Shown in pieces: positions 10,200-26,462 of a stretch of 64,000 nucleotides of DNA (position 1 is its first letter; the number at the start of each line of letters is the position of its first letter). The position numbers and the translations under genes were made by a program. Below the pieces are notes generated by a model. That model worked only from the letters and a program-made list of their open reading frames with translations, made no database searches and was not told the DNA's origin. The stretch is taken from NCBI GenBank assembly GCA_964470365.1, contig CAYYCO010000002.1, forward strand, positions 76,044 to 140,043. Reading direction: 5' to 3'. Origin of the DNA: an uncultured Anaeromyxobacteraceae bacterium. Its GTDB lineage: Bacteria > Myxococcota_A > UBA9042 > DTJE01.

Positions 10200-10235
10200 G
10201 CCTTGCCCGCGCGCGCGGCCCGTTGCCGCGAAAAG

Positions 10236-11023
10236 TCAGTCAAGCCGGTACATCCCGGGCCGCCTGTCGGAAAAAAGATCATTGCGCGCGGTCACGGACT
10301 TGTCGTCCGCCCGGGCGGGATCGATCTCGACCGACACGACCGCGGGGCGATCGCCCGGCCCGTCGGCAAGGACTGCGCCGTCCGGACCGACTATCCTTGA
10401 TCGGCCGGTGAAAGCTGCCGAAAGCCCGGCAACCGATTCGGAACCGATTCTGTTGGCGGTCACCGTGAACACGCCGTTTTCCAGGGCCCTCGTCACCATC
10501 GCGTCCTGGCAGGTCTTCAGAACGAGGTTGGAAGGATGGGCGATTACCCGGGCGCCCGCAAGCGCAAGGGTTCGTGCTGCTTCAGGAAAACGCCAGTCGA
10601 AGCAGATCATGATCCCGACCTGCGTGCCGGCCATGTCAATCACTTTGAAACCGCTGTCGCCAGGGTCGAACCATGCCTTTTCGCTGTCGAAGAGATGGGT
10701 CTTTCGATAGACGCCGCGAAGGCCGCCGGCGTCGACCGCGATTGCCGAATTGAAGATCGCGCCGCCGTCGGTTTCGGGGATCCCTGCGACGAACGCCGTC
10801 CCGAATCGGCGCGCAAGTTCCGTCAGGCGGGCGCAGACCGGGCCGTCGGCAGGCTCCGCGGCGGCGGCAAGTTCGTCCCTGCCGCAGAAAAGGTACCCGC
10901 TGGAAAACAGCTCCGGCAGCACCCAGAGATCCGAGCCGCTGGCAGCCCCGCGCAGGGAGTCCTGAACCATTTCAAGGTTTGCCCCGCGGTCGAGGCGCCG
11001 GGGCATGGTCTGTATGAAGCCGA
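10236..11023 (-). CDS. carbon-nitrogen hydrolase (nitrilase superfamily; possible omega-amidase)
   Basis: Internal ATG (MKIGFIQ...) chosen over the upstream R/G-rich ORF extension. Matches to the catalytic E/K/C triad context (VLPELF..., RKTHLF, MICFDWRFPE). Confidence 0.75.
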
Positions 11024-11062
11024 TTTTCATTGCGCAGCCGGAATGACCGGGCCGGGGCCGGA

Positions 11063-11983
11063 TCAGACGTGGGCGTCGAGCCACGTCCGCAGTTCGGCGA
11101 TGACCTCGTCCCTGTTGATTTCGTTGAGCATTTCGTGACGTCCCCCGGGGAACAGCCGCATGGTGACGTCCTGGATGCCGTATTTCCTGTAGCGTCCGTA
11201 AAGCGCCCGCACGCCCTTTCCGTAACCGCCGACCGGATCCGCCGCGCCGGCAAAGATGTAAATGGGCAGTCCGGTCGGAATCCGGCGTTCGTGAACCGGC
11301 GTCCAGATTGTCTTCAGGAGCCTCAGCAGTTCCAGATAGAAGCTGTTCGGGAAATCGGCGCCGCATTCCGGGTCGTTGAAGTAATCACGAACGACCTTCG
11401 TGTCGCGGGACAGCCAGTCAAGGCCGGTGTCGGTGTCGTGCAGGCCCTTGTTGTACGGCCCGAGCGAGAGCTGGTGAAGCAGGTCGGCCTTCGTGTCGGC
11501 CCCCTTCAGCGCGACGACCGCCCTGGCCACAAGAAGACCGATGCCGACCAGCGGATTGGTGCCGTTGGTGCCCGAAAGGACAACGCCGTCGACCCTGTCC
11601 CCGAACGACTGCATGTAAGCCTGCGACAGGAACGAACCCCAGGAATGTCCCATCAGGAAAACCTTGAGGCCTGGATTTTCCTGCCTGATGATGCCGGTGA
11701 GGTGGGTCGTGGCGGCCAGCACCGATTCCCATCCCCCGGCACCCAGCTTGCCCCTCATGCCGTCAATCAGCGTGCTGCCGTGGCCCCGCGCGTCGGCCGC
11801 GTACACGATGTAGCCAGCCGCCGTGATGTCGCCGGCGAAAGCGGCGTACCGGTATGCAGTTTCCTGCATTCCGTGAACCACCTGGATGACCGCCCTTGCA
11901 TCGCCGTCCGGAGACCATTTGTGGACGTGGACATCAACGCCGGAATTGTCCTTGAACCAGAATTCCAGAGCCTGCATTTTCAC
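11063..11983 (-). CDS. alpha/beta hydrolase (lysophospholipase/monoacylglycerol-lipase-like)
   Basis: Nucleophile elbow GHSWG. Hydrolase_4-like layout. Confidence 0.75.
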   Translation of the reverse strand: MKMQALEFWFKDNSGVDVHVHKWSPDGDARAVIQVVHGMQETAYRYAAFAGDITAAGYIVYAADARGHGSTLIDGMRGKLGAGGWESVLAATTHLTGIIRQENPGLKVFLMGHSWGSFLSQAYMQSFGDRVDGVVLSGTNGTNPLVGIGLLVARAVVALKGADTKADLLHQLSLGPYNKGLHDTDTGLDWLSRDTKVVRDYFNDPECGADFPNSFYLELLRLLKTIWTPVHERRIPTGLPIYIFAGAADPVGGYGKGVRALYGRYRKYGIQDVTMRLFPGGRHEMLNEINRDEVIAELRTWLDAHV

Positions 11984-12001
11984 CCCCCCGGGGATCCCCC
12001 G

Positions 12002-13432
12002 TCAGCAGTCCAGGTGCGTTTCAATCTCCCACGGATGCGGGCGCCCCCTGAGTTCCTCGATTTCGGACTTCGTGTGAATCGAAATCCAGTCCGCAATCAG
12101 CGACTCCGTGAACACGCCACCCTGCAGCAGGTAGTCGTGATCCTGTTCGAACGCCCTGATCGCCTCTTCCAGGCTTCCCGGGAGCGGCTTGATCTTTTCC
12201 GAACGTTCCTTCGGGTCCATCGCAAATACGTTCATGTCGTAGGGGCCATATCCCATCGCCGTCGGGTCCATCTTCTTCAGAACGCCGTCCAGGCCGGCCA
12301 GCAGCATCGCGGCCTCGCTGAGGTACACGTTGCAGGTCGCGTCGGGGGTCCGGAATTCCATTCGCTTCTTGCCGGGCTGCGTGGCGTACTTCGGGATGCG
12401 GATGGCCGCGCTGCGGTTTCCGAGCGAGAAGAACGCGTTCACCGGCGCCTCGAACCCCGGCACCAGCCGGCGGTAGGAGTTCGTGGAAGGATTGGTGATT
12501 GCAAGCAGCGACGGGGCGTGGTGCAGCAGGCCGGCGATATACGCAAGCGCGGTTTCCGACAGCCCGGCGTATCCATTTTCATCGTAGAAGACCGGGCGGC
12601 CGCCCTTGAAAAGATGCTGGTGGAAATGCATCCCGCTGCCGGCCTCGCCGTGGAACGGCTTCGGCATGAATGTCGCCACCATGCCGTGCTTCCTGGCGGT
12701 CATCTTGACGAAATACTTGACCAGGAACGCGACGTCGCCCGCCCGGACAGGGCTGGTCATGTCGACCTCGATTTCCTGCTGGCCCACCGAACCGACTTCG
12801 TGATGATGGTACTTGACCCCGACGCCGGCCTCCTCCAGCAGGACGACCATCTCATTCCTGATGTTGAAGAACGCGTCCTGCGGCGGGCAGGCATGGTACC
12901 CGCGGTGATGTGCAATGGTGACCGGTTCGCGGTGACCCTCGACGGCCGAAAGAGCACCCTCGCGGCAGATGATCTTCGACGAAGCCTCGGCGCACCCGTT
13001 ACGCACCTGCACGTCGTCGGCCAGATAGAATTCGTATTCGGGACCGAAATGGCAGTCGTCGGCGATCCCGGTGGACGTCATGAATTCGCAGGCATGCTTC
13101 AGGATGCCGCGCGGGTCGCGGGGGAAGGGTTCCAGGGTCCCGGCCTCGCGCACGTCGCAAAGCAGCGACAGGGTTTTTTCATCGAAAAACGGATCGATGA
13201 ACGCGGTTTCGATATCGGGCACGATGACCATGTCGCCGGACTCGACCGTTTTGAAACCCGGCATGTTCGACCCGTCGAAACCGATGCCGGTCTCCCAGAT
13301 CGATTCGTCCATCCGGCGGGCCGGCAGCGTCACGTGGTGCGCCTTGCCCTTCAGCGACGTGAATTTGAAATCGACTGTCCTGACGTCTTCTTTACGAATG
13401 AATGCAAGCAGTTCGCGAACGGTGGAAAACAT
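12002..13432 (-). CDS. glnA: glutamine synthetase type I
   Basis: 476 aa. GS signatures (ATFMPKP...GSGMHFHQ, NPSTNSYRRLVPGFEAP). Full-length beta-grasp + catalytic domains. Confidence 0.9.
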   Translation of the reverse strand: MFSTVRELLAFIRKEDVRTVDFKFTSLKGKAHHVTLPARRMDESIWETGIGFDGSNMPGFKTVESGDMVIVPDIETAFIDPFFDEKTLSLLCDVREAGTLEPFPRDPRGILKHACEFMTSTGIADDCHFGPEYEFYLADDVQVRNGCAEASSKIICREGALSAVEGHREPVTIAHHRGYHACPPQDAFFNIRNEMVVLLEEAGVGVKYHHHEVGSVGQQEIEVDMTSPVRAGDVAFLVKYFVKMTARKHGMVATFMPKPFHGEAGSGMHFHQHLFKGGRPVFYDENGYAGLSETALAYIAGLLHHAPSLLAITNPSTNSYRRLVPGFEAPVNAFFSLGNRSAAIRIPKYATQPGKKRMEFRTPDATCNVYLSEAAMLLAGLDGVLKKMDPTAMGYGPYDMNVFAMDPKERSEKIKPLPGSLEEAIRAFEQDHDYLLQGGVFTESLIADWISIHTKSEIEELRGRPHPWEIETHLDC

Positions 13433-13503
13433 GAAGCCTCCAGATTACAAAGGATCACAATGGTTATCCACCCCGCGCCTGCTGTCAACATAATGAAAAC
13501 GCA

Positions 13504-13524
13504 GGGCATTGCACTCCCTGTGCC
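13504..13524 (-). promoter_or_regulatory. candidate sigma-54 (-24/-12) promoter upstream of glnA
   Basis: Minus-strand sequence cGGCACagggagtGCAat matches TGGCAC-N5-TTGCA with the correct GG..GC spacing, about 70 nt upstream of the glnA start. Confidence 0.4.
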
Positions 13525-13643
13525 GACCAGGGAACGCATTCAGGGTCGCGCGCCCGTCCTGTGCCTAACCACTGGACTGCACGGAAACATAATGCATAAT
13601 GCTGGTTCAGATACCGACCAGAACCGACTGAAGCGGGGAACAC

Positions 13644-15380
13644 ATGAACGCCATCCTGGACGCTCTTGACGCCGCGCTGCGCTTCGCGGCCGACCTTGTA
13701 TGGAACACACCGAAGGTGCTGCCGGCAATGGTCGTCCTGCTGCTGTGCACAGGCGTCTACCTGACGATACGGCTCGGATTCGTGCAGTTCCGGCGTCTTG
13801 GACATGCCATCAGGGCAGTGGCCGGGAAATACGACGATCCGAACCATGCCGGCGACGTTTCCCATTACCAGGCGCTGTCGTCGGCCCTGTCCGCCACCGT
13901 CGGAATCGGCAACATCGCCGGGGTCGCGACGGCGGTCCATTACGGTGGACCCGGGGCCGTCTTCTGGCTGTGGCTGACCGGGTTCCTGGGCATGGCCACC
14001 AAATTCGCGGAATGCACGCTCGCACAGAAGTACAGGGTTGTTCACGAAGACGGTTCCGTTTCGGGCGGCCCGATGTATTACATCGAAAAGGGGCTGGGCC
14101 GTCGATGGAAATGGGTCGCGGTCCTGTTCGCCGCCTGCGCCGCCACGGGCGCCCTTGCCACCGGCAATTCGATACAGGCCTTCACGATGGCCGACAGCCT
14201 GCGTTCGGACATGGGGATTCCGACGTGGATCACCGGTCTGGTTTCGGCGACGCTCGTCGGCCTGGTAATCGTTGGCGGGATCAAGCGCATCGGCAGCGTC
14301 ACCGGTCGGCTGGTGCCGTTCATGGGCATCCTCTATGTCAGCAGCGCCCTCCTGGTCGTGATCCTGCACATCTCGAATCTGCCCGACGCAGTCGCCGCCA
14401 TCGTCTCCGGCGCATTTTCGCCGCCCGGCATGATCGGCGGCTTCGCCGGTTCCACGTTCATCTTCACGCTGACATGGGGCGTCAAGCGTGGCCTCTTCTC
14501 GAACGAGGCCGGGCAGGGCAGCGCCCCGATTGCGCACGCGGCGGCCAGGACCGACGAACCGGTCCGTGAGGGCGCCGTCGCCCTGCTCGAACCGTTCATC
14601 GATACCGTGGTGGTCTGTTTCATGACGGGCCTGGTCGTGGTCCTGATGGGTACCTGGAACGAAAAATTCCCCGACAGATACAACCTTGCCGCCGGCAGCG
14701 GCCTGTCGTACATCAAGGCCGCGGCAGTCGTGCAGCCTCGCGGGAAGATCGGCGCGGAACAGGCCTTCGAGGGTACCGCCGCCATATCTGCGGGAAGGAT
14801 GTCCGGCGCCCGCGTCGTCAGGAACCACTCGATCGTGGACGACGCGCTGTTCACGCTTGACGGCAGGCCGTTCGACGGCACCCTGACGATCGATGGCGAC
14901 ATGCAGACCATCAAGGATGCATCGGGAACGGGGGTCCCGGCGTTCAGGGTATACGTGGCCGGAAAAAACCTCCTGAACGGGTCGCCGCTGACCGCCAAAT
15001 CGTTCCAGAAAGGGCTGTCCGGGATCTTCCCCTGGGGTAACTTCATCGTCACCATCAGCGTGTTCCTGTTCGCCATCTCCACCGCAATTTCCTGGTTCTA
15101 TTACGGCGATCGGGCGATCCTCTACCTGTTCGGCCGGAAGGCGACGATTCCGTACAAGGTGCTGTACACCGCGGTACAGTTCATCGGCGCCACGGTCTCG
15201 CTGGAAATGGTGTGGTCTTTCGGTGATGCCGCGCTCGGGCTGATGGCGATACCGAACCTGATCGCCGTGCTGGCTCTTTCCGGTTCGGTCGCCAGGGACT
15301 CGAAAGACTACTTCTCAAGGATGGCCGCAGATGAACTGCGTTCGCTGAAACAAGGGATCACGGGGGCACAGGATGACTGA
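13644..15380 (+). CDS. alanine/glycine:cation symporter (AGCS family)
   Basis: AGCS N-terminal signature (SALSATVGIGNIAGVATA..GGPGAVFWLWLTGFLGMATKFAE). Multi-TM. Confidence 0.85.
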   Translation: MNAILDALDAALRFAADLVWNTPKVLPAMVVLLLCTGVYLTIRLGFVQFRRLGHAIRAVAGKYDDPNHAGDVSHYQALSSALSATVGIGNIAGVATAVHYGGPGAVFWLWLTGFLGMATKFAECTLAQKYRVVHEDGSVSGGPMYYIEKGLGRRWKWVAVLFAACAATGALATGNSIQAFTMADSLRSDMGIPTWITGLVSATLVGLVIVGGIKRIGSVTGRLVPFMGILYVSSALLVVILHISNLPDAVAAIVSGAFSPPGMIGGFAGSTFIFTLTWGVKRGLFSNEAGQGSAPIAHAAARTDEPVREGAVALLEPFIDTVVVCFMTGLVVVLMGTWNEKFPDRYNLAAGSGLSYIKAAAVVQPRGKIGAEQAFEGTAAISAGRMSGARVVRNHSIVDDALFTLDGRPFDGTLTIDGDMQTIKDASGTGVPAFRVYVAGKNLLNGSPLTAKSFQKGLSGIFPWGNFIVTISVFLFAISTAISWFYYGDRAILYLFGRKATIPYKVLYTAVQFIGATVSLEMVWSFGDAALGLMAIPNLIAVLALSGSVARDSKDYFSRMAADELRSLKQGITGAQDD

Positions 15381-16926
15381 CAATTCAACGGAAAAACCGA
15401 AAGGGCAGGCAGGACGCGGCGCTTTCAACAGCCGGCTTGGTTTCATCCTTGCGGCGGCGGGCAGCGCCGTCGGACTCGGGAACCTCTGGCGCTTCCCGTA
15501 CCTGACATACAAATTCGGGGGCGGGGCGGGCGACAAGGCCGGCGCCGGAACCTTCGTCATGATCTACCTGCTGTGCATCGTCCTGGTGTGCCTGCCGGTC
15601 ATGATCGGTGAAATCCTTATCGGGCGGCGGGGCAGACGCAACCCGGTCGGCTCGTTCAACGCCATCAGGCCCGGCACGCGCTGGAACCTTGTCGGATACC
15701 TGGGAATCCTGACGGGGTTCCTGATACTTTCGTATTACACCGTCGTTGCCGGCTGGACCATCGAATACACCTGGAAATCGGCCGTAAACGAATTCGGGCG
15801 CGCAACGACGGCCGTCAGCGACGCATCGGCCATCGCCGGCATGGCGGAAGACTTCCGCAACAGGACGGGATCGCGGGTCGACGACGCGGCCGCGATCGCC
15901 GCAATCCGCGCGGGCGTTGCCGACGACGCGGCCTTCCGGACCCTGGTTGACAAGAAGAAGAACGAAGTCCATCCCCAGCAACTGTTCAACGACTTCCTGG
16001 GCAGCCCCGTCAAGCAGGTCGTCTGGTATCTCGTGTTCATGGCAATGACGGTAGGGCTGGTGCTTGGCGGCGTCTCGGGCGGCATCGAACGCGGAAACAA
16101 GATCATGATGCCCCTGCTGCTGCTGATGCTGGTGGTGCTGGCGATCCGGGCGCTGACCCTGGAGGGCGGCACCCGGATTGTCGGATACCTGTTCAAGCCG
16201 GACTTTTCGCAAATCGGCTGGGAACTGGTCCTGGCGGCAATGGGACAGGCGTTCTTTTCACTTTCGGTCGGCATGGGCGCGCTGCTGACATACGGCAGCT
16301 ACCTGGGTCCCGATGACCGCATCGACACCGCTGCGTACGCGATTCCGATAATCGACACCTCGGTGGCGCTTCTGGCCAGCGTGGTCGTCTGCGGTTCAAT
16401 CTTCGTGTTCGGACTGGTGATGACCGGATCCGGCACCGGAAACGTCTTCACCGCCATCCCGGTCATCTTCCACAGCATGCCGGGGGGGCGATGGCTGGTC
16501 ATACTCTTCTATCTGCTTGTGCTGCTGGCGGCCCTGACATCCACGATTTCGCTGCTGGAGGTCGTTGCGTCATACCTGATTGACGAAAAAAAGATGTCGC
16601 GGCGGCGTGCGGTGCTGATCGCCGCCTCCGGCATCACCGCGCTCGGCCTGGTGTGCGCGCTGTCCTTCAACGTGCTGTCCGGGGCCACCCTGGCCGGCAG
16701 AACGGCTTTCGACATACTCGACTACTTCTGTTCAAACATTGCCCTTCCCGCCGGCGGCATCCTGATCGCAATATTCGTCGGGTGGGTCATGAAACGGGAC
16801 GAAAAACGCGCGGAACTTTCTTCCATGCCTTCGGGCGTTTACCGCACCTGGGACATCCTGCTTAAATTCGTGACGCCGGTCGCAATCGCAGCCGTGTTCG
16901 CCGGGCAGTTTTTCCTGAAATTCTAA
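15373..16926 (+). CDS. sodium-dependent transporter of the neurotransmitter:sodium symporter (SNF/NSS) family
   Basis: Signature GLGNLWRFPYL. 11-12 TM helices. Start overlaps the AGCS stop, suggesting an operon. Confidence 0.85.
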   Translation: MTDNSTEKPKGQAGRGAFNSRLGFILAAAGSAVGLGNLWRFPYLTYKFGGGAGDKAGAGTFVMIYLLCIVLVCLPVMIGEILIGRRGRRNPVGSFNAIRPGTRWNLVGYLGILTGFLILSYYTVVAGWTIEYTWKSAVNEFGRATTAVSDASAIAGMAEDFRNRTGSRVDDAAAIAAIRAGVADDAAFRTLVDKKKNEVHPQQLFNDFLGSPVKQVVWYLVFMAMTVGLVLGGVSGGIERGNKIMMPLLLLMLVVLAIRALTLEGGTRIVGYLFKPDFSQIGWELVLAAMGQAFFSLSVGMGALLTYGSYLGPDDRIDTAAYAIPIIDTSVALLASVVVCGSIFVFGLVMTGSGTGNVFTAIPVIFHSMPGGRWLVILFYLLVLLAALTSTISLLEVVASYLIDEKKMSRRRAVLIAASGITALGLVCALSFNVLSGATLAGRTAFDILDYFCSNIALPAGGILIAIFVGWVMKRDEKRAELSSMPSGVYRTWDILLKFVTPVAIAAVFAGQFFLKF

Positions 16927-16941
16927 AGGCAGGGACGTCGG

Positions 16942-17337
16942 TTACTTGTCGGCGGGTTCTTCGGACCCATCTTCTTCATCGTCGCAACCGCAACAGCAGC
17001 ATTCCTCGTCCTCGAGGTCGTCTTCATCGATGTCGCCACATTCCAGCATTTCATCGAGCAGTTCGTCGATTGCCTCGCGCACGCCCTCGGCCTCGTTTTC
17101 CAGTTCCTCGAGGTACTTGTTGAGAGCTTCCAGCATCTCGGCGCGATTGAAGAACTGTCTCCTGAAACCAAACTCGGGGCATCCCTTTTCTTCCATTTCA
17201 TCTTCCTTTGCCGGCCTTCCGGGCCAGTCGTCGCGTGAGTCTCTCATAGGCCGTCCAGGCCAGTCGCCGCGCCGTTCATCCCTGCATTCGCAGTCGCGGC
17301 CCTGCCAGCGCCCCATACCGCCAAACCTGTCGTTCAT
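16942..17337 (-). CDS. small acidic hypothetical protein with a DWPGRP repeat and a CCCCGC cysteine cluster
   Basis: 131 aa. SD GGGGGA 5 nt upstream. Consensus sigma-70 promoter just upstream. The competing Ser-rich plus-strand ORF overlaps the tRNA and is low-complexity. Confidence 0.5.
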   Translation of the reverse strand: MNDRFGGMGRWQGRDCECRDERRGDWPGRPMRDSRDDWPGRPAKEDEMEEKGCPEFGFRRQFFNRAEMLEALNKYLEELENEAEGVREAIDELLDEMLECGDIDEDDLEDEECCCCGCDDEEDGSEEPADK

Positions 17338-17369
17338 GGCTTCCCCCGTTTTTCCGCCAGCCTGCGTGC

Positions 17370-17398
17370 ACTATATTGCCGACACCGGCATGTGTCAA
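17370..17398 (-). promoter_or_regulatory. near-consensus sigma-70 promoter (TTGACA-17 bp-TATAGT)
   Basis: Minus strand: TTGACA (plus 17393-17398), exact 17-nt spacer, TATAGT (plus 17370-17375), about 30 nt upstream of the small-ORF ATG. Confidence 0.45.
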
Positions 17399-17439
17399 AG
17401 CACTTCAGTTGAATCGTATCCGATGATGTCCGGGATCGG

Positions 17440-17510
<71 letters not shown>

Positions 17511-17598
17511 AGCCCAAAAGCAAAAGGGATTTTACAGGCCGCGCGCAGTCCGTGTCAATGGGACAAATGGCATTGGAACGGTGTGGGGGGGTTAACAT

Positions 17599-17636: not shown

Positions 17637-20600
17637 TTACTGGCAGAGACCGTTAAGGCAGGTTCCCGACACGCAGTCGGTGCCGTACACGCAGTGCTTC
17701 CCGGCAGCGCAGTCCTTGCAGACGCGGCCGCCACAGTCGACGTCGGTTTCCGACTGGTCCTTGACGAAGTTCCAGCAGGAGGTCACGACGGTCACGCCCT
17801 CGAAGGTGCCGAGAGACGTGCCGACGGTCCTGCCGCCGGTGGCCGGCCTGCTGGCCGTTGGCACTGTCGGCGCGAACTGGATGAATCCGGATTCGGTCGA
17901 CAGCGGGCCAGGACCGCTCGGACCAGTCGCGGGCGGATTGGGATAACCAGCGTTGCCGAACGACGGCGTCGCGTTCGTGACCTTGCAGCCGGCGCAGCAT
18001 CCGCCGACGTCGCAGCAGTAACCGGTCTGACAGAATCCCGAGACGCAGTCCGAGTTTTCGTCGCAAGGCTGGTTATTGGCGAGGTTGGCCATGCAGACGG
18101 CATTCGAGTAAGTCGGCGCCACCGGGTCGCAGTGGGCGTTCGGGTCGCAGACGTCGTCGTTTTCGATCTTCGTGCCGCCATCGTAGCAGGTTGTCGGACA
18201 CGGCGGGTCGATCTGGTCGATGCCGCCGTTGCAGAACACCGGCAGATAGTAGCCGCAGTCATCCGAGATATGGCCGGGGTCGTACACGCAGTCGGAGTCT
18301 TCCGGCAGGTATTCCGAACCGCACCGCGCGTCGACGCAGGTCGCCCGCTGTTCGGTACCCTGGCAGGTCTTCCAGTCATCGCAGTTCGCCGGCGCCCAGT
18401 ATCCTTCGCGCGGATCGACGGTCGGGCAGTCGGTGTTGCGGGCGCAGCAGTCGCCGAAATCACAGCAGAAATCGTTCTGGCAGTGACCGATGCCACCCGG
18501 GAGCCACTGCTGGTTCAGGCATTCGAAGTCATTCTCGCAGGGACCGCCGTTGGGTACGAGCGGGATGCAGATGGCGTTTGTCGGATTGTCTTCGTCCCAG
18601 TCGCACCTGGCATCGTCGTCGCACTTGCTGTCGTCCGGCACGCCGGCGGTAAGGCAGGAGGTCAGGCACTCGGTTCCGCCGCCGTCCCACGGTGCAAGCC
18701 AGCCGGCGCCGGGGCAGACGGCCGGGGTCGAGAACGAAGAGACCGGACACCGCGCCGGTATGTAGGCGCCGCAGTTATCGGCGATGGAACCGCCGCACCG
18801 GCAGTCGTCGCGGACGAGCTGGTCGCCGCACTTGTTGTCGACGCAGATCGGGTCCTTCCTGTGGCCTTCGCAGACCAGGTCGCCGGTGATCGGATCGGCC
18901 ACCGTGTCGCAGGAAGCCGGCGTCGTATAGATTGCCGGGCATTCCGCAGCGCCAGCCGCGTCGGCTGTCGGACAGCAATCGCCCTCCGAACAGCAGAAGC
19001 CGTTCTTGCTGTGGCCGGAGATGCAGTCCGAGTCCTCGTTGGATGCGGCGCCGTTCGGCAGGTCGGCGACACAGAACATGGCCCGCAGGGACGGATCCGG
19101 ATCCACATCCGTGGCCACGACCGGATCGCAGTGGGCGTTCGCGTCGCAGTCGGTGTTCGACGTACAGTACGTCAGACAGTCCGGCTTGGACTGTACCTGC
19201 GGGACCAGGACGGAATCGAACGGGCCGTAGTCGCCGCAGAACATGGAGTAGTAGTAGCCGCACCGGTCCGATTCAACCGTGTCGTCACAGGCCGTGTCGT
19301 CCGGAACCTCGGTTTTCACGCACTCGAAATTGACGCACCTGGCATCCCACCGCTTTCCCTGGCAGAAGCTGATCGGGTTGAGCGGGTCGGTGGTGTCCGG
19401 GTCATTGCAGATCGGGTCTTCGCTGTAGACGCCGGCGCCGACGCGGTTGCATACCAGGTCGGTCGTCATCCAGTCCGGGTCGGCCCAAAGCTGGTTCGGG
19501 TCCTCGCCGTCCTGCGGGACGTCCCAGGCCGCGGCCGGGCAGCAGTCGCCGGAGCCGCAGCAGAATCCGTTCTGGCAGTGCAGGCTGACGCAGTCCAGAT
19601 GCTGTTCGCCGAGCACCAGGTCGGTGCAGTCGCCGCCGTTTTCGACCAGCGTCTTGACGCGCAGTTCAAACCTGAAGGGCGTGTACGCGAACATGCCGCT
19701 GTTGGTGTCGACGCCGACGTAGTATTCGCCGGGCTGGAGCTGGACATCGATTTCGGCCGGTTCGGTGTCGGTCGATTCGGCGCACCGTATCGAACCAGCG
19801 GCGCAGGTGGCGCCGTCCGCGCCCTTCAGGAAAAGGATCAGCCGGTTGCCCGGAACCGGCAGGAGCCTGACGGTCACGCGCTTGGCCACGCCCAGGCTGA
19901 ACTTGTAGATGCGGTCGGGGCCATCCAGGCCGCCGCAGCCCGAATCGTTCACGGAGTTGATCGCGCACGCGAGGGTGCCGTCGACGTTGATTGCCGGGTT
20001 CTGGTCCTGGTTCCCGAGGTCGATCGGCGTTTCGCAGCGGCTGCCGAGGTTCAGCGTCGGGTCGTCCGAACCCTTCATGTACAACGAAAATTCGTGCAGG
20101 GTACCGGAATTTCCGGTAGCACCGTCGCACACCTGGACAGTCCATATGCCGTCCATAGCCTCGCCCTTCAGGGCGCACATGGGCTGGCCGGAAGTTTCGT
20201 TCCCCGGGTATGTGATCGGGAACGACACGTCGAAGGTGTTCGCGAAGCCGTCGTTTTCCGCCCCGAGGTTGTTCCAGACGCGGTGCCTCGCGCCCTGCGG
20301 GTCGATAACGTCGATCTGCAGTTCGCCGATTGCCTCGTGACTGATCTTCATTTTCAGTTCGGCGTTCAGGACGTACGCGAAGCCGGTGGTGACAGGCACC
20401 ATGACGTTGGTGCAGCCGTTTCCGTTGACGCGTTCGTTAATCGCCAGATCCACGGTGCCGCTGCTGGCCTTGTAGCACATGCCGTCCGGGCAGGTCGGGT
20501 TGCAGCCGCCGCGCGGGTAGCCGTCGATACCGCCGACGCACGAATCCTCAAATCCGCAGTCGTCGTCACCGGCGTCGAAGGGATGTTCACCGCCACACTG

Positions 20601-23600
20601 GCCGTTGCAGTTGGTCTTGCGTTCATGTTGGCAGTAACCGGCCAGGCAGACGTCGTCGGTGCACGGGTTCGGTTCGTCGGTACATTCGGTCCCGTCCGGG
20701 AAGGCGCCGCGCACGCAGAGGTAATCACCCCATTCGATGTTCTGGCAGATGCCCTCGTTGCAGTCGTCGCCGGTGTCCGAACAGTCGACCATGGTGCCGA
20801 AGCCGCACATGCCGTTATTGCACACGTCGTTCGAACAGCCGAGGCCGTCGAATTCGCACGGGGTGCCATTGTCCCTCTTCCATTCCGAGCACGCGTCGGC
20901 ACCCTCGTCGCAGTAGCCTTCCACGCAGGAAGCACAGTGCCCGTCGGTGCAGTCGATATCGGTGACCGCGCAGTCGCGCGGGCCACCGCCGGTGCAGGCG
21001 CTGATCGAATCCTCGCCGACAAGGCAGTAATCCTGGATCGTGCAGAACATGCCGTCTTCGCACGGGGTGTAGTTCAAAGCGTTGCGCATCTTGCACACGC
21101 CGTCGAACGGGTCGCAGACGTTTGAACGGCACGCGACGCCGGGTTCGGCACAGACGACCGGGGCGTCGGCCAGTTCGCACATCCTGTCGTCGTTGCAGAC
21201 CCAGGTCGTACCGTTGCACTTGTTGCCGTCGTCCCCGCAGGCCGAATCGAGGCCGCTCGGACAGCCGCAGAGGAGCGTCGGCCCGGGCATGCAGAGGCCG
21301 CCCTGGCAGAAGTCGCCGCCATTGCACAATTCACCGTCATTGCAGGGGGTTTCATCGGCGGCCTGGACGATCGTGCACTGATCCAGGTCCTCCGAACATG
21401 TACCCACCGTGCAGGTGCCGGACAGGTAGCCGCAATCCATCGGATCGCCGGCCATGCAACTGCCCGCCTGACAGAAGTCGTCCTCGGTGCAGAAGGAGCC
21501 GTCATCGCACGGAGAACCGTTGGTCGCCGCGGTTTCGACGCACTCGCCGGTGTCGGGCTGGCAGGTGTTTTCCATGCAGGGATTGTCGAGCGGCCTGCAC
21601 TGCTTGAGCGAATGTACGCACACGCCGCCGGCCGATACGTTGGTGCACGAATCAAGGGTGCAGAGGTTGCCGTCGTCGCATTCCGCATTGCGGAAGCAGC
21701 CCGCACTGACGACATAAATCGTGAAGTACACGAGTTGCCCCGTCATCCCGGTTACGTTATCCCAGACCTTGAGGGTCCAGTCGCCTGCGATGGGCAAACG
21801 CTTGAAATCAAGCATCTGGCCGGGGCCGGCAACGGGATCCCAGTCGTACACGTCGTGGAAGCCCGCGTTGGTGCCACCCTTGGCGTCGCGGAGGCGTACG
21901 CACACGTCCTCGTGGCAGAGTTCGGCGCGGAGGTCGCCGGCGGCCGGGTGGATCGTCCGGATCTTGACCTTGACCTTCGACACGTAGCCGTTGGCGTTGA
22001 TTTTGAGAACCTTGGTCAGACCGGCCGGGTCGTTGTCGGGAATGTCGGCCGGAAGGTCGTTGACCCAGTCGTATTCGTAGGGCGTGCCCTCGATCGTGCG
22101 GCACACGCAAAGGGATTCGCCGGTGCCCGGGTCGATGTCGACAGCGGGGTCGCAGACGCGATCTTCCGTGCCGCCGATAAGACAGACCTCGTTCCGGAAG
22201 CAGTCGTCATGGGTGGAGCACGGGCCGCCGCAGGCCTGAATGACTTCATTCACGCATTCGCCGGTTGCGGGATCGCATGAATCGACGGTACACGTCAGGC
22301 CGTCGTCGCAGCCCCTCGGAGTGAACACGCATACGCCCGCCGGGCAGGAAGCGACCTGGCAGAGGGAAGCCGGGCATTCGTCCGCATCGCTGCACGAAAC
22401 GTCGGCCAGTTCGGCGAAGAAATGCCATTCTTCAAACGTACCGTCCGAGAAACTTGGATCGGTGTCTTCGGCAACGACGGTCCATGTGCCGACGGAGCCC
22501 TCGCCGTCGAAAGCGGTGACCGGCTGGAACGACGGAACACCGATGTCATAGGTTTCATAGATGCTGGTTTTCGGGTCGGCGAAGCTGCTGTTGCGGAGTA
22601 TCGCGGAGGTGCCGGCCGGGCTGGTGACGGTAAGTTTGACGTCGCCGCGGTATTCGTGCTGGAGGCCGACCTTGAAGTTCGAATTCGCGACCACGCCGTT
22701 TGCCGGCACGTTAACTGCGCAGGAGGCCATGACGGGCGCGGCGCCGAAGTCGGCCTGGCAGTCGGCGTCGAAACGGAACCCGGGAATGTCGACGCAGTAG
22801 CCCAGGGAGGTGTCACAGGCCTGGTTGATGCCGCACGACGGGGTTCCATCCGGGCGGAACTTGTCGTTTTCACACGGAACACACGGGTTGACCTGCAGAT
22901 TGATGCATTCCCCGACGTTGCAGTAATCGGTGGTGCAGACCTCGAAGTCCTGGCAGTTTTCGACCACCGTGCAGGACGGATAGCCGTATTCGAGGAAGTT
23001 CAGGTACATGGTCATCAACTGGTTCGTCGACATGGCCCCGTTGTACCCGAGGGCGCCGAACGGCAGCGATGAACCGATCGTGCGCCGGTAGAGCGGGTTG
23101 TTGTCGACGTCGACGCCGACCTGTTCTTCGTATGAAACCGCGACGGCGAACGGATCGTTCACGGCAGCGTTTCGGACGATTTCACGGCCGCCACCCTCCG
23201 ACACGTGGCGCAGCTTGTCGATCCACGCGTTGACCGTACCGGTCTGGGACACGTTGAAGGAGGCGCCGTGCAGGAAGTTGTAACCGGAAACCGGGCCGGC
23301 CATGCGCATGACGCCGCCGTCCGAAGTGGCCTCCGTCTTGAAGTACGGATGCAGGACGGTGGATGCCTGCGAACCGGACGTCGTGTAGAAGAAGTCGCCG
23401 CCCTCGAGGTAGACCTTGCCGCCCTGATCAAGGTACAGACGCAGGCGCGCGGCGTTCATCGGGGACAACGGAGCGTAGCGGCCCTTCACGCCGAGTACGG
23501 CGAAGACGCCGGTGTATTTCGTGAGATCGGGAACCATCGACAGGTCGGTGATGATCTGGGCCTTGCGGCCGGAATCGATGATCGCCTGCTTGATCGCGAC

Positions 23601-26243
23601 GGCGCTGGGGTCGGTCACGCCGAGCGGCGACCACACGATGTAGCCGTCCTCCAGGAGCACCGTGAGATCGAATTTGGTCAGCGATTCAAACGGGGCGTGC
23701 AGTCTGTATTTGCCGGTCTTGTCGTATTCGTCCTGGGAAACGAGCCCCATGCGGTACGAACCCGCGTAGTCCTCGTTACAGGACGGCTTCACGTCAACGC
23801 CGCAGTAGTAGTAACCGTCGACCGCCATTGCGGGCACGCCGCAGACAAGCTGGACCATGCCGGGGAGCGTATCGCAGGAGCCGCCCTGACCGACGTCCGG
23901 CGCGCCGGCCGTGAACGGGGGCTGGTCGAGCGGTTCGCCGTCCAGGCGGGACAGGGGGAATCCGAAGAACTGCCAGGTCGAGTTGCTGGCGTCCGGATCC
24001 CGGTAGCACATGAAGATCCTGACCCAGTCGCAGGAGCCGACCGTCAGGGCGGGCATTTCCTTTTCGGCCGGCGACTGGGCGATCAGCGTGGCGTTGTATA
24101 CGCTGCACGCACTGCCGCCCTGCGGGCATCGGTAAGCCTTGGCCTTGATGAATTGGTTGGTCACGCCGGCCGCGACCTTGACGTCGTCGATTTCCCAGGA
24201 ATTCATCATGTATGTCGAACCCGGGGCGGTGTCGAGCAGGAAGCCGATTTTGAGCGACGGCGAATATTTGATCGCTTCGGGCAGTTCGGCTGTCGCGAGC
24301 TGATATTCCAGGTCATGGTTTACCGTGGTTTCCCAGACGACGGCGCCGTTGAGGAAATCGTTGTTGTCGGTCGCGACGACCTTCAGTTTGATGGACTGGC
24401 CGGGAGCCGCGTGTTTGTATGACATGCGCCACTGCAGGGTCGTCTTGCCGAGGTTGTTGAACATGTCGCGTGCGGCGGTGGTGCCGTCAAGCTGCGGCGA
24501 TATGGCGACCGTCTTGACGACGATCGTCGGCAGCGGGTCCCACGTGAACGCCAGGTGCGTGTCGGGACCGAGGTCACCGACGGCCGAATTCAGTTTCCAG
24601 TGATCGACTGAAGCGGTCTGGAAGTCGCGGGTCGTCCAGCCGATCTCGGGCAGGACGGAGACGCCGTCGAACGGTTCGACGTAGGGCAGTTCAAGGGTGC
24701 AAGACGCATCGTAAGGATGCTGACAGGTGAATCTGCCGGAAATCGGTTCCAGCAGGCAGTTTTCGGCGGTGCAGGGGTTGCCGTCGTCGGCGTGTTCCTT
24801 GCACCATTCTTTGTCCCAGCAGCAGTCCGTGGTCGACCACGAATGGCGGCAGCTGCTGAGGAAGCAGGTATCGGTCGTGCAGGGATCGTTGTCTTCGCAG
24901 TCGGCGGCCGTCACGCAGCAGTCGGCCTGCATTTTTTCCCTGGTGCAGACATGGCCCCAGCACATGTCGTAGGTGCACGCGTTTCCGTCGTCGCAGTCGG
25001 AATTCAGGTTGCAGCAGTTTTCGAGGGGTGCGCCCGCCGAGCAGATGTTGGTGCCCATGTCGCAGAAGTCGGGGGTGCAGAATTTCTTGTCGTCGCACTG
25101 GGCGTTGGCGAAAGCGGTACGTTCCAGTTCGCTTGCCCACGGCAGGCCCGTCTTCGGGTTCTTGTCCGCCGGCGCGTAGCAGCAGCCCGGGTTGATGTTG
25201 TACGCCGAGTAGACGCAGCGGTTGCTGGTGCAGTAGTCGGCGTTGCACGGGTTGCCGTCGAAGCATTCCGAAACGTCGTGGCAGCACATCGGGATTTTGT
25301 CGTTGGTGCACCTGAGCGTGTTCAGGTTGCAGACGTCCTGCGTGCAGACCTCGCTGTCGTTGCAGTCGGCATTCACGAGGCAGCATTCGGGCTGGCGCGG
25401 ATTGGTGCATACGCCGGCCGTGCAGGCGTCGAACGTGCAGACGTTCCCGTCGTAGCAGGCCGCATGGTTCTGTTCGACATACCCGTCGTTCCTGGCGCCT
25501 GGCGTACCCTTGTCGCCGGTCCCGAACACCTTGGTGGAAACCACGAAATTGGAGTCTTCCCAGGACGTCGGGTCATTCGGGAGTTCCGGTATGACCATCG
25601 CGGCGTTGTCGAGATACGGGTGCTTGAGTCCGACCGATGCCGCGGCCGGCGCCGAAGTCGTGAAGCCCGCATCCGGGCCGTAGACGACGCGGTCGATTTC
25701 AGCGGCCTGCGGGTCCAGGAGGAGGACCGAGTCGCCGCCGTTGACGAGCGCGAAGTTGGTCAGCTGGTAGGCACAGGTAACGCCGCCGTTCAGGCTGGCA
25801 TTACTGTTGCGGCAAAGCACCAGGTACCCCCCTGAAGGAATGACGAGGCTGCCGACGATCTGATGGATGCCGGGCCCGTCTTCGGCGATGTACCAGCCGG
25901 CCAGGTCGACCGCGGCTGCCGTCGGGTTGTACAGCTCTATCCATTCGCCGTTTGCGTCACCGACGGCAACCGGGTCGATCATCAGTTCGTTGATGACGAC
26001 GTGGTTGACCGTCGGAGTGCACGTCTTGGCATCGCGGGTCTGGAGTTCCCGCGTGGCAACGGCCGATTCGACTGGTTCCTCTTCCACGGCGGCATCGACC
26101 GCCGCAACGTCCGTGACGACCTGGTCGGACGCCGTCAGGGCACCCGCAAGGGCGAGGTTGTCATGGCCGCCTTCAGAGCAACCGGCGATGGCCCCGGCCG
26201 AAAAAACCGCCAGAACCGCAAGACAGAAAGGATGGAGCTTCAT
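17637..26243 (-). CDS. giant cysteine-rich surface lipoprotein of about 2,868 aa (lamin-tail domain, MXAN-type Cys-rich repeats, three proprotein-convertase P-domain-like modules, PPC-like domain)
   Basis: Start set at MKLHPF... (SD AAGGAGG 5 nt upstream; lipobox IAGC). LTD motif VVINELMIDP...GEWIELYNP...DLAGWYI. Dozens of C-x-D-x-N-x-C-T-x-D-x-C repeats. Three GxWTLxVxD...G.L..W/F segments and a PPC-like DxxDxYxF...YYVGV segment. About 230 Cys by hand count. Confidence 0.85.
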   Translation of the reverse strand: MKLHPFCLAVLAVFSAGAIAGCSEGGHDNLALAGALTASDQVVTDVAAVDAAVEEEPVESAVATRELQTRDAKTCTPTVNHVVINELMIDPVAVGDANGEWIELYNPTAAAVDLAGWYIAEDGPGIHQIVGSLVIPSGGYLVLCRNSNASLNGGVTCAYQLTNFALVNGGDSVLLLDPQAAEIDRVVYGPDAGFTTSAPAAASVGLKHPYLDNAAMVIPELPNDPTSWEDSNFVVSTKVFGTGDKGTPGARNDGYVEQNHAACYDGNVCTFDACTAGVCTNPRQPECCLVNADCNDSEVCTQDVCNLNTLRCTNDKIPMCCHDVSECFDGNPCNADYCTSNRCVYSAYNINPGCCYAPADKNPKTGLPWASELERTAFANAQCDDKKFCTPDFCDMGTNICSAGAPLENCCNLNSDCDDGNACTYDMCWGHVCTREKMQADCCVTAADCEDNDPCTTDTCFLSSCRHSWSTTDCCWDKEWCKEHADDGNPCTAENCLLEPISGRFTCQHPYDASCTLELPYVEPFDGVSVLPEIGWTTRDFQTASVDHWKLNSAVGDLGPDTHLAFTWDPLPTIVVKTVAISPQLDGTTAARDMFNNLGKTTLQWRMSYKHAAPGQSIKLKVVATDNNDFLNGAVVWETTVNHDLEYQLATAELPEAIKYSPSLKIGFLLDTAPGSTYMMNSWEIDDVKVAAGVTNQFIKAKAYRCPQGGSACSVYNATLIAQSPAEKEMPALTVGSCDWVRIFMCYRDPDASNSTWQFFGFPLSRLDGEPLDQPPFTAGAPDVGQGGSCDTLPGMVQLVCGVPAMAVDGYYYCGVDVKPSCNEDYAGSYRMGLVSQDEYDKTGKYRLHAPFESLTKFDLTVLLEDGYIVWSPLGVTDPSAVAIKQAIIDSGRKAQIITDLSMVPDLTKYTGVFAVLGVKGRYAPLSPMNAARLRLYLDQGGKVYLEGGDFFYTTSGSQASTVLHPYFKTEATSDGGVMRMAGPVSGYNFLHGASFNVSQTGTVNAWIDKLRHVSEGGGREIVRNAAVNDPFAVAVSYEEQVGVDVDNNPLYRRTIGSSLPFGALGYNGAMSTNQLMTMYLNFLEYGYPSCTVVENCQDFEVCTTDYCNVGECINLQVNPCVPCENDKFRPDGTPSCGINQACDTSLGYCVDIPGFRFDADCQADFGAAPVMASCAVNVPANGVVANSNFKVGLQHEYRGDVKLTVTSPAGTSAILRNSSFADPKTSIYETYDIGVPSFQPVTAFDGEGSVGTWTVVAEDTDPSFSDGTFEEWHFFAELADVSCSDADECPASLCQVASCPAGVCVFTPRGCDDGLTCTVDSCDPATGECVNEVIQACGGPCSTHDDCFRNEVCLIGGTEDRVCDPAVDIDPGTGESLCVCRTIEGTPYEYDWVNDLPADIPDNDPAGLTKVLKINANGYVSKVKVKIRTIHPAAGDLRAELCHEDVCVRLRDAKGGTNAGFHDVYDWDPVAGPGQMLDFKRLPIAGDWTLKVWDNVTGMTGQLVYFTIYVVSAGCFRNAECDDGNLCTLDSCTNVSAGGVCVHSLKQCRPLDNPCMENTCQPDTGECVETAATNGSPCDDGSFCTEDDFCQAGSCMAGDPMDCGYLSGTCTVGTCSEDLDQCTIVQAADETPCNDGELCNGGDFCQGGLCMPGPTLLCGCPSGLDSACGDDGNKCNGTTWVCNDDRMCELADAPVVCAEPGVACRSNVCDPFDGVCKMRNALNYTPCEDGMFCTIQDYCLVGEDSISACTGGGPRDCAVTDIDCTDGHCASCVEGYCDEGADACSEWKRDNGTPCEFDGLGCSNDVCNNGMCGFGTMVDCSDTGDDCNEGICQNIEWGDYLCVRGAFPDGTECTDEPNPCTDDVCLAGYCQHERKTNCNGQCGGEHPFDAGDDDCGFEDSCVGGIDGYPRGGCNPTCPDGMCYKASSGTVDLAINERVNGNGCTNVMVPVTTGFAYVLNAELKMKISHEAIGELQIDVIDPQGARHRVWNNLGAENDGFANTFDVSFPITYPGNETSGQPMCALKGEAMDGIWTVQVCDGATGNSGTLHEFSLYMKGSDDPTLNLGSRCETPIDLGNQDQNPAINVDGTLACAINSVNDSGCGGLDGPDRIYKFSLGVAKRVTVRLLPVPGNRLILFLKGADGATCAAGSIRCAESTDTEPAEIDVQLQPGEYYVGVDTNSGMFAYTPFRFELRVKTLVENGGDCTDLVLGEQHLDCVSLHCQNGFCCGSGDCCPAAAWDVPQDGEDPNQLWADPDWMTTDLVCNRVGAGVYSEDPICNDPDTTDPLNPISFCQGKRWDARCVNFECVKTEVPDDTACDDTVESDRCGYYYSMFCGDYGPFDSVLVPQVQSKPDCLTYCTSNTDCDANAHCDPVVATDVDPDPSLRAMFCVADLPNGAASNEDSDCISGHSKNGFCCSEGDCCPTADAAGAAECPAIYTTPASCDTVADPITGDLVCEGHRKDPICVDNKCGDQLVRDDCRCGGSIADNCGAYIPARCPVSSFSTPAVCPGAGWLAPWDGGGTECLTSCLTAGVPDDSKCDDDARCDWDEDNPTNAICIPLVPNGGPCENDFECLNQQWLPGGIGHCQNDFCCDFGDCCARNTDCPTVDPREGYWAPANCDDWKTCQGTEQRATCVDARCGSEYLPEDSDCVYDPGHISDDCGYYLPVFCNGGIDQIDPPCPTTCYDGGTKIENDDVCDPNAHCDPVAPTYSNAVCMANLANNQPCDENSDCVSGFCQTGYCCDVGGCCAGCKVTNATPSFGNAGYPNPPATGPSGPGPLSTESGFIQFAPTVPTASRPATGGRTVGTSLGTFEGVTVVTSCWNFVKDQSETDVDCGGRVCKDCAAGKHCVYGTDCVSGTCLNGLCQ

Positions 26244-26462
26244 GGCGCCTCCTTGACCGGTGATAGCACCCGTCACGCAAACATTGCACACCTGTGGCAA
26301 CACCATCGACGCAATTATCGACAAAAGCCCAACAAATCCGGGCAGTCTGCCCATATTGCCGGCGGTTCCGCCACAGCGGAATAAAACACCGGGTTTTCTC
26401 GACAGCAGGTTTCGTGCCAATGCAGTCTCCTTCCGGTGCAATTCTCGATCGTGCGGAGGGCG

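Follow-up and report, generated by a model that had tools for sequence, protein, structure and literature searches.

The bacterial metallothionein SmtA/BmtA, which is paired with the ArsR-family repressor SmtB, folds around a Zn4 cluster without a coiled coil, and the metallochaperones CopZ (copYZAB) and ArsD (arsRDABC) are encoded within operons and adopt ferredoxin-like and thioredoxin-like folds, respectively. His/Cys-rich metal-binding tails are carried by SlyD, HypB, UreE, Hpn and the GroES of Helicobacter pylori, and the low-complexity tails of SlyD, HypB and Hpn vary in their exact pattern. HAAS, a domain of three helices with a GxP-containing kink in the third, is always paired with PadR and is usually fused to membrane sensor domains (PMC11237479). 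The locus described here encodes a small acidic protein of 131 amino acids (16942..17337, minus strand) in a window of 64,000 nucleotides from an uncultured Myxococcota bacterium (contig CAYYCO010000002.1, positions 76,044 to 140,043); "the window" refers to this whole stretch of DNA, and coordinates without a contig or locus label are positions within it.

The small gene is real and monocistronic. On comparative grounds, its transcription is driven by a near-consensus promoter of the sigma-70 type that belongs to the gene itself and is evidently under strong purifying selection, and the gene is probably strongly transcribed. In our favoured reading, to which a probability of about 0.45 is attached, the product would be a highly expressed, stand-alone metal-binding protein, oligomeric and with thiolate and carboxylate ligands. 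The reading, which agrees with the likeness to small metal-binding proteins noted in the preliminary description, is backed indirectly, by the His/Cys-rich tails of the protein family and by the ArsR/PadR and exporter genes among which typical family members lie. A small ligand-rich, probably metal-binding protein is of a known kind; its architecture and its family are uncurated, and no description of either was found.

The coding sequence consists of 131 codons and a TAA stop with the ATG at 17337, as the preliminary description had read it on the minus strand, and the computed properties of the product are a mass of 15.3 kDa, an isoelectric point of 4.1, a net charge of −27, nine Cys and no His. 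The GC content of the window is 64.0% and not the 67% given at first, and that of the small gene is 58%, with a third-codon-position value (GC3) of 0.67 against 0.80–0.83 in the neighbouring genes; the use of GAA and GAT codons contributes partly to the low GC3. Ten homologues were present in a large protein database, the close ones with 61–78% identity and one labelled Myxococcota, and the identical 131-aa protein was encoded on two further metagenome contigs. Compared with three diverged relatives, the sense frame had nonsynonymous to synonymous substitution ratios (dN/dS) of 0.12–0.18, with dS at or near saturation.

A Ser-rich open reading frame (ORF) on the plus strand (16946..17458) extends over 170 codons of the window without a stop, and the real gene might be this frame, or no gene might be present at all. 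Since the Ser-rich antisense frame and the sense frame share their wobble position, substitution counts by codon position cannot separate them, and stop codons in relatives were therefore used to choose the strand. Two to seven stops interrupted the Ser-rich frame in every relative examined, which refutes a plus-strand gene, and in the window the frame runs across both the tRNA-Cys gene and the promoter of the small gene. Its openness is a by-product of the opposite strand, because GAN-rich sense codons leave the antisense frames open and so produce a spurious ORF. The dN/dS values of the sense frame and its homologues across phyla leave this alternative practically no probability; the minus-strand frame is the conserved one.

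For this gene a TTGACA-17-TATAGT promoter had been proposed, and it was found as described: a −35 hexamer TTGACA (17398..17393, minus strand), a 17-nt spacer and a −10 hexamer TATAGT (17375..17370, minus strand), together matching the sigma-70 consensus at 11 of 12 positions. Both strands of the 64 kb contain two sites with at least 11/12 matches, i.e. the promoters of the small gene and of the tRNA-Cys gene, and shuffled sequence yields a mean of 0.09. Exact TTGACA-N17-TATAGT precedes the small gene in 13 of 13 close loci, which comprise exact and near relatives (L001–L009) and metagenome-assembled genomes (MAGs) of Myxococcota, some labelled Anaeromyxobacteraceae (L018–L021); L001, L002 and L007–L009 derive from environments of the anaerobic-digester type. 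In four independent, diverged lineages aligned by anchoring on the hexamers, the −35, the −10 and the GGCAA just before the −10 were all 100% invariant, including each of the 11 positions of the extended −10 block GGCAATATAGT (17370..17380, minus strand). The corresponding values were 35% in the spacer, all from the C after the −35 and the GGCAA, 4% in the 25 nt upstream of the −35, and 0% in the 45 nt downstream. Such a pattern is, to judge from the alignments, the phylogenetic footprint of a functional promoter, and in its 17-nt spacing, its placement before the gene and its conservation across relatives the element has the attributes of the sigma-70 type. The conservation of the promoter in relatives also upholds the earlier claim of a genuine gene with a strong promoter.

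Transcription would start at about 17363, 7 nt past the −10 and at the position suggested previously, giving a predicted 5′ untranslated region (UTR) of 26 nt (17338..17363, minus strand). A GGGGGAA ribosome-binding site (17347..17341, minus strand) lies 3 nt (17340..17338) before the ATG, and GGAGG-like sites are kept 3–5 nt before the ATG in relatives. An Rfam scan of the locus matched only the tRNA and returned no RNA element in the 5′ UTR. Stand-alone relatives from other lineages have promoter matches of 9–10/12 at 25–46 nt from the ATG together with GGAGG sites, and because these relatives share good promoters and ribosome-binding sites, strong independent expression seems to be a trait of the part of the family to which the small gene belongs.

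The tRNA-Cys promoter, TTGACA-18-TAAAAT (17529..17558, minus strand), is located 160 nt upstream of that of the small gene, and its TTGACA and GGCCTGTA[AG]AAT are conserved across lineages. Both promoters have GGC about 3–5 nt upstream of the −10 (GGCCTG TAAAAT for tRNA-Cys, GGCAA TATAGT for the small gene), and the shared GGC may be a lineage-specific promoter element. Together the two provide a clean, phylogenetically footprinted promoter architecture for uncultured Myxococcota.

The product is modelled as a very acidic 15-kDa cytoplasmic protein with a disordered N-terminal tail, an FGFRRxF motif followed by a helix of 36 residues, and a disordered poly-Asp/Glu tail. In an AlphaFold2 run with an 11-sequence alignment the helix, residues 65–100, was the sole confident element, with predicted local distance difference test values (pLDDT) >90, in agreement with the acidic helix expected from the preliminary description, and residues 1–54 and the C-terminal tail scored <50. 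The family-defining core, residues 55–100 (17038..17175, minus strand), consists of the EFGFRRQF motif and the amphipathic helix with five a/d heptads (a/d residues F62, L69, L72, L76, L79, A83, V86, I90, L93, M97); large hydrophobic residues occupy 9 of 11 a/d positions, and the net charge of the core helix is −9. From this heptad pattern we infer that the helix would form a coiled-coil oligomer. Alignment of the clade to which the protein belongs (the window clade) revealed 23 invariant columns in the core, EFGF[RK]RxF...YLEELENEAEGVREAI, with variable tails on both sides.

The N-terminal tail, residues 1–54 (17176..17337, minus strand), is predicted to be disordered and contains a CxC (C16, C18) and C53, the Cys count and positions differing across the clade. 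Two DWPGRP repeats had been pointed out, and they are present at residues 25–30 and 37–42, inside the tandem 12-residue units RRGDWPGRPMRD (residues 22–33) and SRDDWPGRPAKE (residues 34–45), which together cover 17203..17274 on the minus strand. Seven clade members retain the N-tail, and six of them (P0001–P0003 and P0005–P0007) have both copies, as DWPG[RK]P; in P0004 the first copy is degraded to GHNGRP. WGPG, a motif related to DWPGRP, precedes F-x-RR-F in Chloroflexi-type family members.

The C-terminal acidic tail, residues 101–131 (16945..17037, minus strand), has a net charge of −16 and includes the Cys cluster CCCCGC at residues 113–118 (16984..17001, minus strand; TGC TGC TGT TGC GGT TGC). 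The cluster had been described as the end of the protein; its presence within an acidic tail was confirmed, but it stops 13 residues short of the C-terminus. At least three Cys are found at the cluster in every clade member, in the patterns CCCCEC, CCCC, CGCGCC, CDCEAC, CECEDC and CCC, and among 158 family members the window clade and P0052, which has an acidic CC tail, are alone in having a C-tail with at least two Cys.

That no family could be named for the protein was borne out by Pfam, NCBIfam and PDB sequence searches, which gave chance-level coiled-coil matches only. An exhaustive search of 1.84 billion cluster representatives with a profile of the 54-residue core resulted in 302 proteins (clusters at 50% identity) at E≤1e-3, including 26 at E≤1e-10, from Chloroflexota, Myxococcota and Micrarchaeota. 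With few exceptions the members have 45–170 residues and carry the helix close to the C-terminus, and the consensus of the core profile is F-x-RR-F ... Y-L-x-x-L-E-x-E-A-x-x-V-x-E-x-I, also seen as FGFRRxF...YLxELExEAxGVREAI. Within the window, a profile built from 77 diverse members matched the small ORF alone (E=6.7e-23), i.e. the profile search detected no paralogue of the small gene in the 64 kb.

The earlier suggestion of an anti-sigma or anti-sigma-like factor has small size, acidity and the helix as its sole points, and it gained no support from the comparison: no sigma factor gene adjoins the small gene in any locus examined, and the protein has no HxxxCxxC zinc anti-sigma motif, no His and no family match. 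The chance of such a function is minute.

When the weak Pfam matches of 64 members were compiled, the most frequent was DUF5320, in 18 members with a best E-value of 0.0018, followed by generic coiled-coil models and then by HAAS in 11 members, and the NCBI record of P0264 names it a DUF5320 domain protein. The window protein itself had no match to DUF5320 (PF17253) even at E≤10, and nothing relevant on DUF5320 or PF17253 was found in the literature. The family is uncurated and possibly a distant relative of DUF5320.

The N-tails of the family are rich in potential ligands (G 19%, H 13%, C 11%, R 10%). Among the 158 members at least two Cys are present in 122 N-tails and at least four His in 75, and 53 proteins start with Met-Cys. 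The window clade is evidently a derived, atypical branch, with no His, few N-tail Cys, the DWPGRP repeats and a new polyacidic Cys tail. In the nearest subfamily the C-tails are often basic, and AT-hook-like in PRGRPRK (P0012) and KRGRPKTK (L022). Because the C-tails range from acidic and Cys-bearing to basic, the tail after the helix is best described as a variable module. A typical member was identified in another Myxococcota MAG (L022, 3716-4132, plus strand), with a His-rich region, the CxC runs CRCGCGC...CDCGC...CTCGCGCGC and the tail KRGRPKTK. Its gene stands directly after a tRNA-Lys gene and the terminator of that gene, has a TTGACT-18-GATAAT promoter, and is the second family member sited beside a tRNA gene.

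A conserved helix followed by a hypervariable Cys-rich tail resembles the leader and core of a ribosomally synthesized and post-translationally modified peptide (RiPP) precursor, and two distant members, L013 and L011, have radical-SAM/SPASM genes in their vicinity. Within 8–10 kb, neither the window nor the syntenic loci encode a maturase, protease or exporter, most family members stop right after the helix and carry their Cys and His on the N-terminal side, and a poly-Asp/Glu core lacking a recognisable cleavage motif would be atypical. A RiPP precursor has accordingly a very slight probability.

Genomic context was surveyed in bulk at 80 metagenome loci of Chloroflexi-type members (L023–L102), by calling ORFs and scanning the neighbours. 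Of the 49 co-directional upstream neighbours within 200 bp, 48 were winged-helix regulators, 33 of the ArsR type (HTH_5) and 15 PadR, at a median distance of about 5 bp from the small gene and with many overlaps. Downstream neighbours were ABC (ATP-binding cassette) ATPases in 23 of 56 cases, others being chromate, MatE and ArsP transporters, and the second shell of genes included ABC-2 permeases (8) and ArsP (5). Among four long-contig examples of Chloroflexota-type members, the small gene starts 5 bp after the end of a PadR gene in L011/L012 and L014/L015, and ArsR, cation-efflux (CDF), ArsP, chromate transporter, DGC-domain and thioredoxin genes are found near L011/L012 and L016/L017, with CDF genes near the small gene in L011 and L016. 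A typical family member is, as read from these gene orders, an accessory protein in a module of regulator, small protein and exporter. The order of ArsR or PadR, a small His/Cys-rich helix protein, an ABC ATPase and an ABC-2 permease is highly recurrent, and no prior description of a His/Cys-rich protein paired with ArsR or PadR was found in the literature.

This context is also what suggests a regulatory partner, in which the acidic helix would dock on an ArsR-, PadR- or MarR-type regulator or mimic its DNA, the tails modulating the contact. The 48 of 49 upstream genes with stop and start codons often overlapping, and the PadR genes 5 bp away, are arguments for it, as are the net charge of the core helix, the weak HAAS matches, HAAS being a partner domain of PadR (PMC11237479), and a natural fusion of 245 aa (P0139) that joins a MarR-family domain to a C-terminal family helix. 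The best NCBIfam match of P0139 is "radical SAM mobile pair system MarR regulator". On the other side, the window clade and the nearest subfamily have no adjacent regulator, so that for the window clade the partner would have to be encoded elsewhere and the small protein to act in trans; no winged helix-turn-helix (wHTH) domain was found among the small ORFs of the 64-kb window. The fusion is a single cluster, and the HAAS matches reach 12–14 bits against a cut-off of 27. Moreover, the partner ArsR proteins retain several conserved Cys of their own, because of which they probably sense directly and need no external sensor; a role of the small protein as the sensor for ligand-less ArsR partners was thus ruled out. 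A regulatory partner is the main rival reading, to be taken seriously if unlikely, and metal binding could be combined with it, as in a hand-over of the CopZ-CopY style.

The same loci bear on a further alternative, an acidic disordered protein with redox-active thiols and without a metal-specific function, which would buffer thiols/disulfides or reactive sulfur or protect against stress. Nine Cys in a cytoplasmic protein with a strong promoter would suit it, as would the Thioredoxin_3, OsmC, DGC-domain and TauE genes at loci of the wider family and the Cys pairs of the partner ArsR proteins, which we take to resemble the persulfide-sensing BigR/SqrR type. The 13% His in the N-tails of typical members points instead to metal ligation, and the window locus has no redox enzyme; a pure thiol function is decidedly improbable.

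As a metal-binding protein, the product would act through its oligomeric state: the helix would drive homo-oligomerisation and thereby gather several thiolate- and carboxylate-rich tails, and the gathered tails would bind metal ions, soft cations (Zn, Cd, Cu(I)) at the Cys clusters and harder cations at the carboxylates, making the protein a buffer or chaperone similar to metallothionein. The ligand-rich module of the window clade would have shifted from a His/Cys-rich N-tail to a Cys/acidic C-tail, and expression would have turned stand-alone and strong, untied from the regulator-exporter operon.

Several observations weigh against this interpretation. Around the window gene lie tRNA-Cys, two Na+/amino-acid symporters and the gene of a giant secreted protein, and nothing adjacent encodes a regulator, an exporter or a metal-related function. 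In the N-tail (residues 1–54) the window clade has no His and only three Cys, metal binding is argued from composition and relatives, and oligomerisation from the heptad pattern. In the wider family, the near-universal pairing with winged-helix regulators fits a regulatory-partner role as well as it fits a buffer, and the commonest partner exporters are ABC-2, the cargo of which could be drugs rather than metals. The nearest subfamily (LENEA[QE]GVREAI) is mostly stand-alone, beside Ldh/Mdh or FAD oxidoreductase genes. An ArsR gene lies upstream in L106 only, and a direct upstream ArsR or PadR gene is absent from the window, the window clade and most of this subfamily.

Within the nearest subfamily, a co-directional Ldh/Mdh-type gene follows the small gene in three lineages (L010, 8447-9454; L103, 5392-6399; L107, 773-1786), and in L013 and L109 the small gene faces a convergent FAD-dependent oxidoreductase.

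More broadly, and as a doubtful proposal at this stage, the helix family might represent unrecognised, widespread metal- or metalloid-binding proteins that are physical partners of ArsR, PadR and MarR in a three-part module of regulator, small protein and exporter. The acidic coiled-coil helix would then engage the regulator, the His/Cys tail would serve to sense the ligand or pass it on, and the window clade would be a derived, constitutive stand-alone form with a polyacidic Cys tail in place of the His/Cys N-tail.

At the window locus, the tRNA-Cys(GCA) gene (17438..17510, minus strand) is the conserved upstream neighbour of the small gene. Its adjacency, which the preliminary description had put forward for comparison in relatives, is found in every relative whose contig extends far enough, and so is the wider gene order of the giant LTD/P_proprotein protein, tRNA-Cys, the small gene and the convergent SNF gene. 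Since these relatives all come from one part of Myxococcota, the synteny counts as weak evidence of a functional link.

Immediately downstream, two tandem Na+-coupled amino-acid transporter genes (13644-16926, plus strand), Na_Ala_symp and then SNF with an 8-nt overlap, converge on the small gene, and the SNF stop codon is 15 nt from that of the small gene on the opposite strand. The two transcripts must therefore either overlap or each end within the gene of the other, and no intrinsic terminator was detected on the minus strand beyond the small ORF.

This arrangement would allow the run of Cys codons to be a translational sensor of Cys-tRNA supply, altering antisense read-through into the convergent SNF gene. 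The run of four to five Cys codons, the retention of a Cys run in all clade members, the conserved tRNA-Cys and SNF neighbours with the SNF stop so close, and the lack of a detected minus-strand terminator would all be in keeping with it. Against it, the core is under strong purifying selection and is common to hundreds of families without a Cys run or such neighbours, and the synteny is drawn from fairly close relatives only, which makes a sensor of this kind very unlikely.

The giant gene (17637-26441, minus strand) ends 126 nt before the tRNA-Cys gene, an arrangement retained in relatives, and encodes 2934 aa with 231 Cys (7.9%), a Lamin Tail Domain (LTD), two proprotein-convertase P-domains and a weak match to Dictyostelium CTDC-like repeats. 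The succession of a Cys-rich giant gene, tRNA-Cys and a Cys-cluster gene may be a coincidence. Beyond the giant secreted Cys-rich protein a FecCD-type ABC importer is encoded. Further from the small gene, an 879-codon ORF (11030-13669, plus strand) has a low GC3 of 0.62 and no Pfam match, and in the approximately 830 nt before it (10200-11029) no ORF was kept by a crude greedy filter; the 879-codon ORF is possibly spurious, and foreign or non-coding DNA would be another explanation of the region.

Annotation routinely leaves small low-complexity proteins as "hypothetical"; here a family of hundreds of clusters was recovered from one such gene. The window gene, probably among the most strongly transcribed small genes of its organism, is an atypical, context-poor member of it. 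For bacterial metal and metalloid homeostasis the family may offer a concrete addition that is open to testing, be it a new metallothionein-like or chaperone architecture of a coiled coil with ligand-rich disordered tails or a new kind of regulator partner.

Compared with the described families and systems, the likeness to DUF5320 (PF17253), a family of unknown function, is one of size and layout: its proteins, from bacteria and archaea, are also small and have a low-complexity N-region ahead of a single coiled-coil helix at the C-terminus. The relatives of the window protein align to the C-terminal two-thirds of the model and score 12–17 bits against a gathering cut-off of 27, whereas the window protein has no match. 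To the HAAS-PadR pairs the small-protein family is similar in part, in that the gene of a helical protein immediately follows that of a stand-alone PadR wHTH, an arrangement that holds for 15 of the 49 upstream neighbours and not for the window gene. It differs in having one continuous helix (65–100), no GxP in the core and no membrane segment, and membership in HAAS (PF22564, DUF1700) was rejected on the definition of that domain by three helices and a GxP.

With SmtA and SmtB the Chloroflexi-type members share the pairing of a small Cys/His-rich protein with an ArsR-type regulator, for which metal buffering would be the presumed role. The sequences are unrelated, the window gene lacks a regulator beside it, and no metallothionein family appeared in the Pfam/NCBIfam matches of the window protein or of the 64 relatives. 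CopZ and ArsD offer the parallel of a small Cys-bearing protein encoded between repressor and export ATPase genes, as in the order of regulator, small protein and ABC ATPase; the proteins are not homologous, and the window gene stands outside such an operon. The tails of SlyD, HypB, UreE, Hpn and GroES are borne on folded enzymes and chaperones with known partners, whereas the small protein is a single coiled-coil helix; common to both are fast-evolving, ligand-rich tails on a conserved structured element, in which the pattern varies and the composition is kept.

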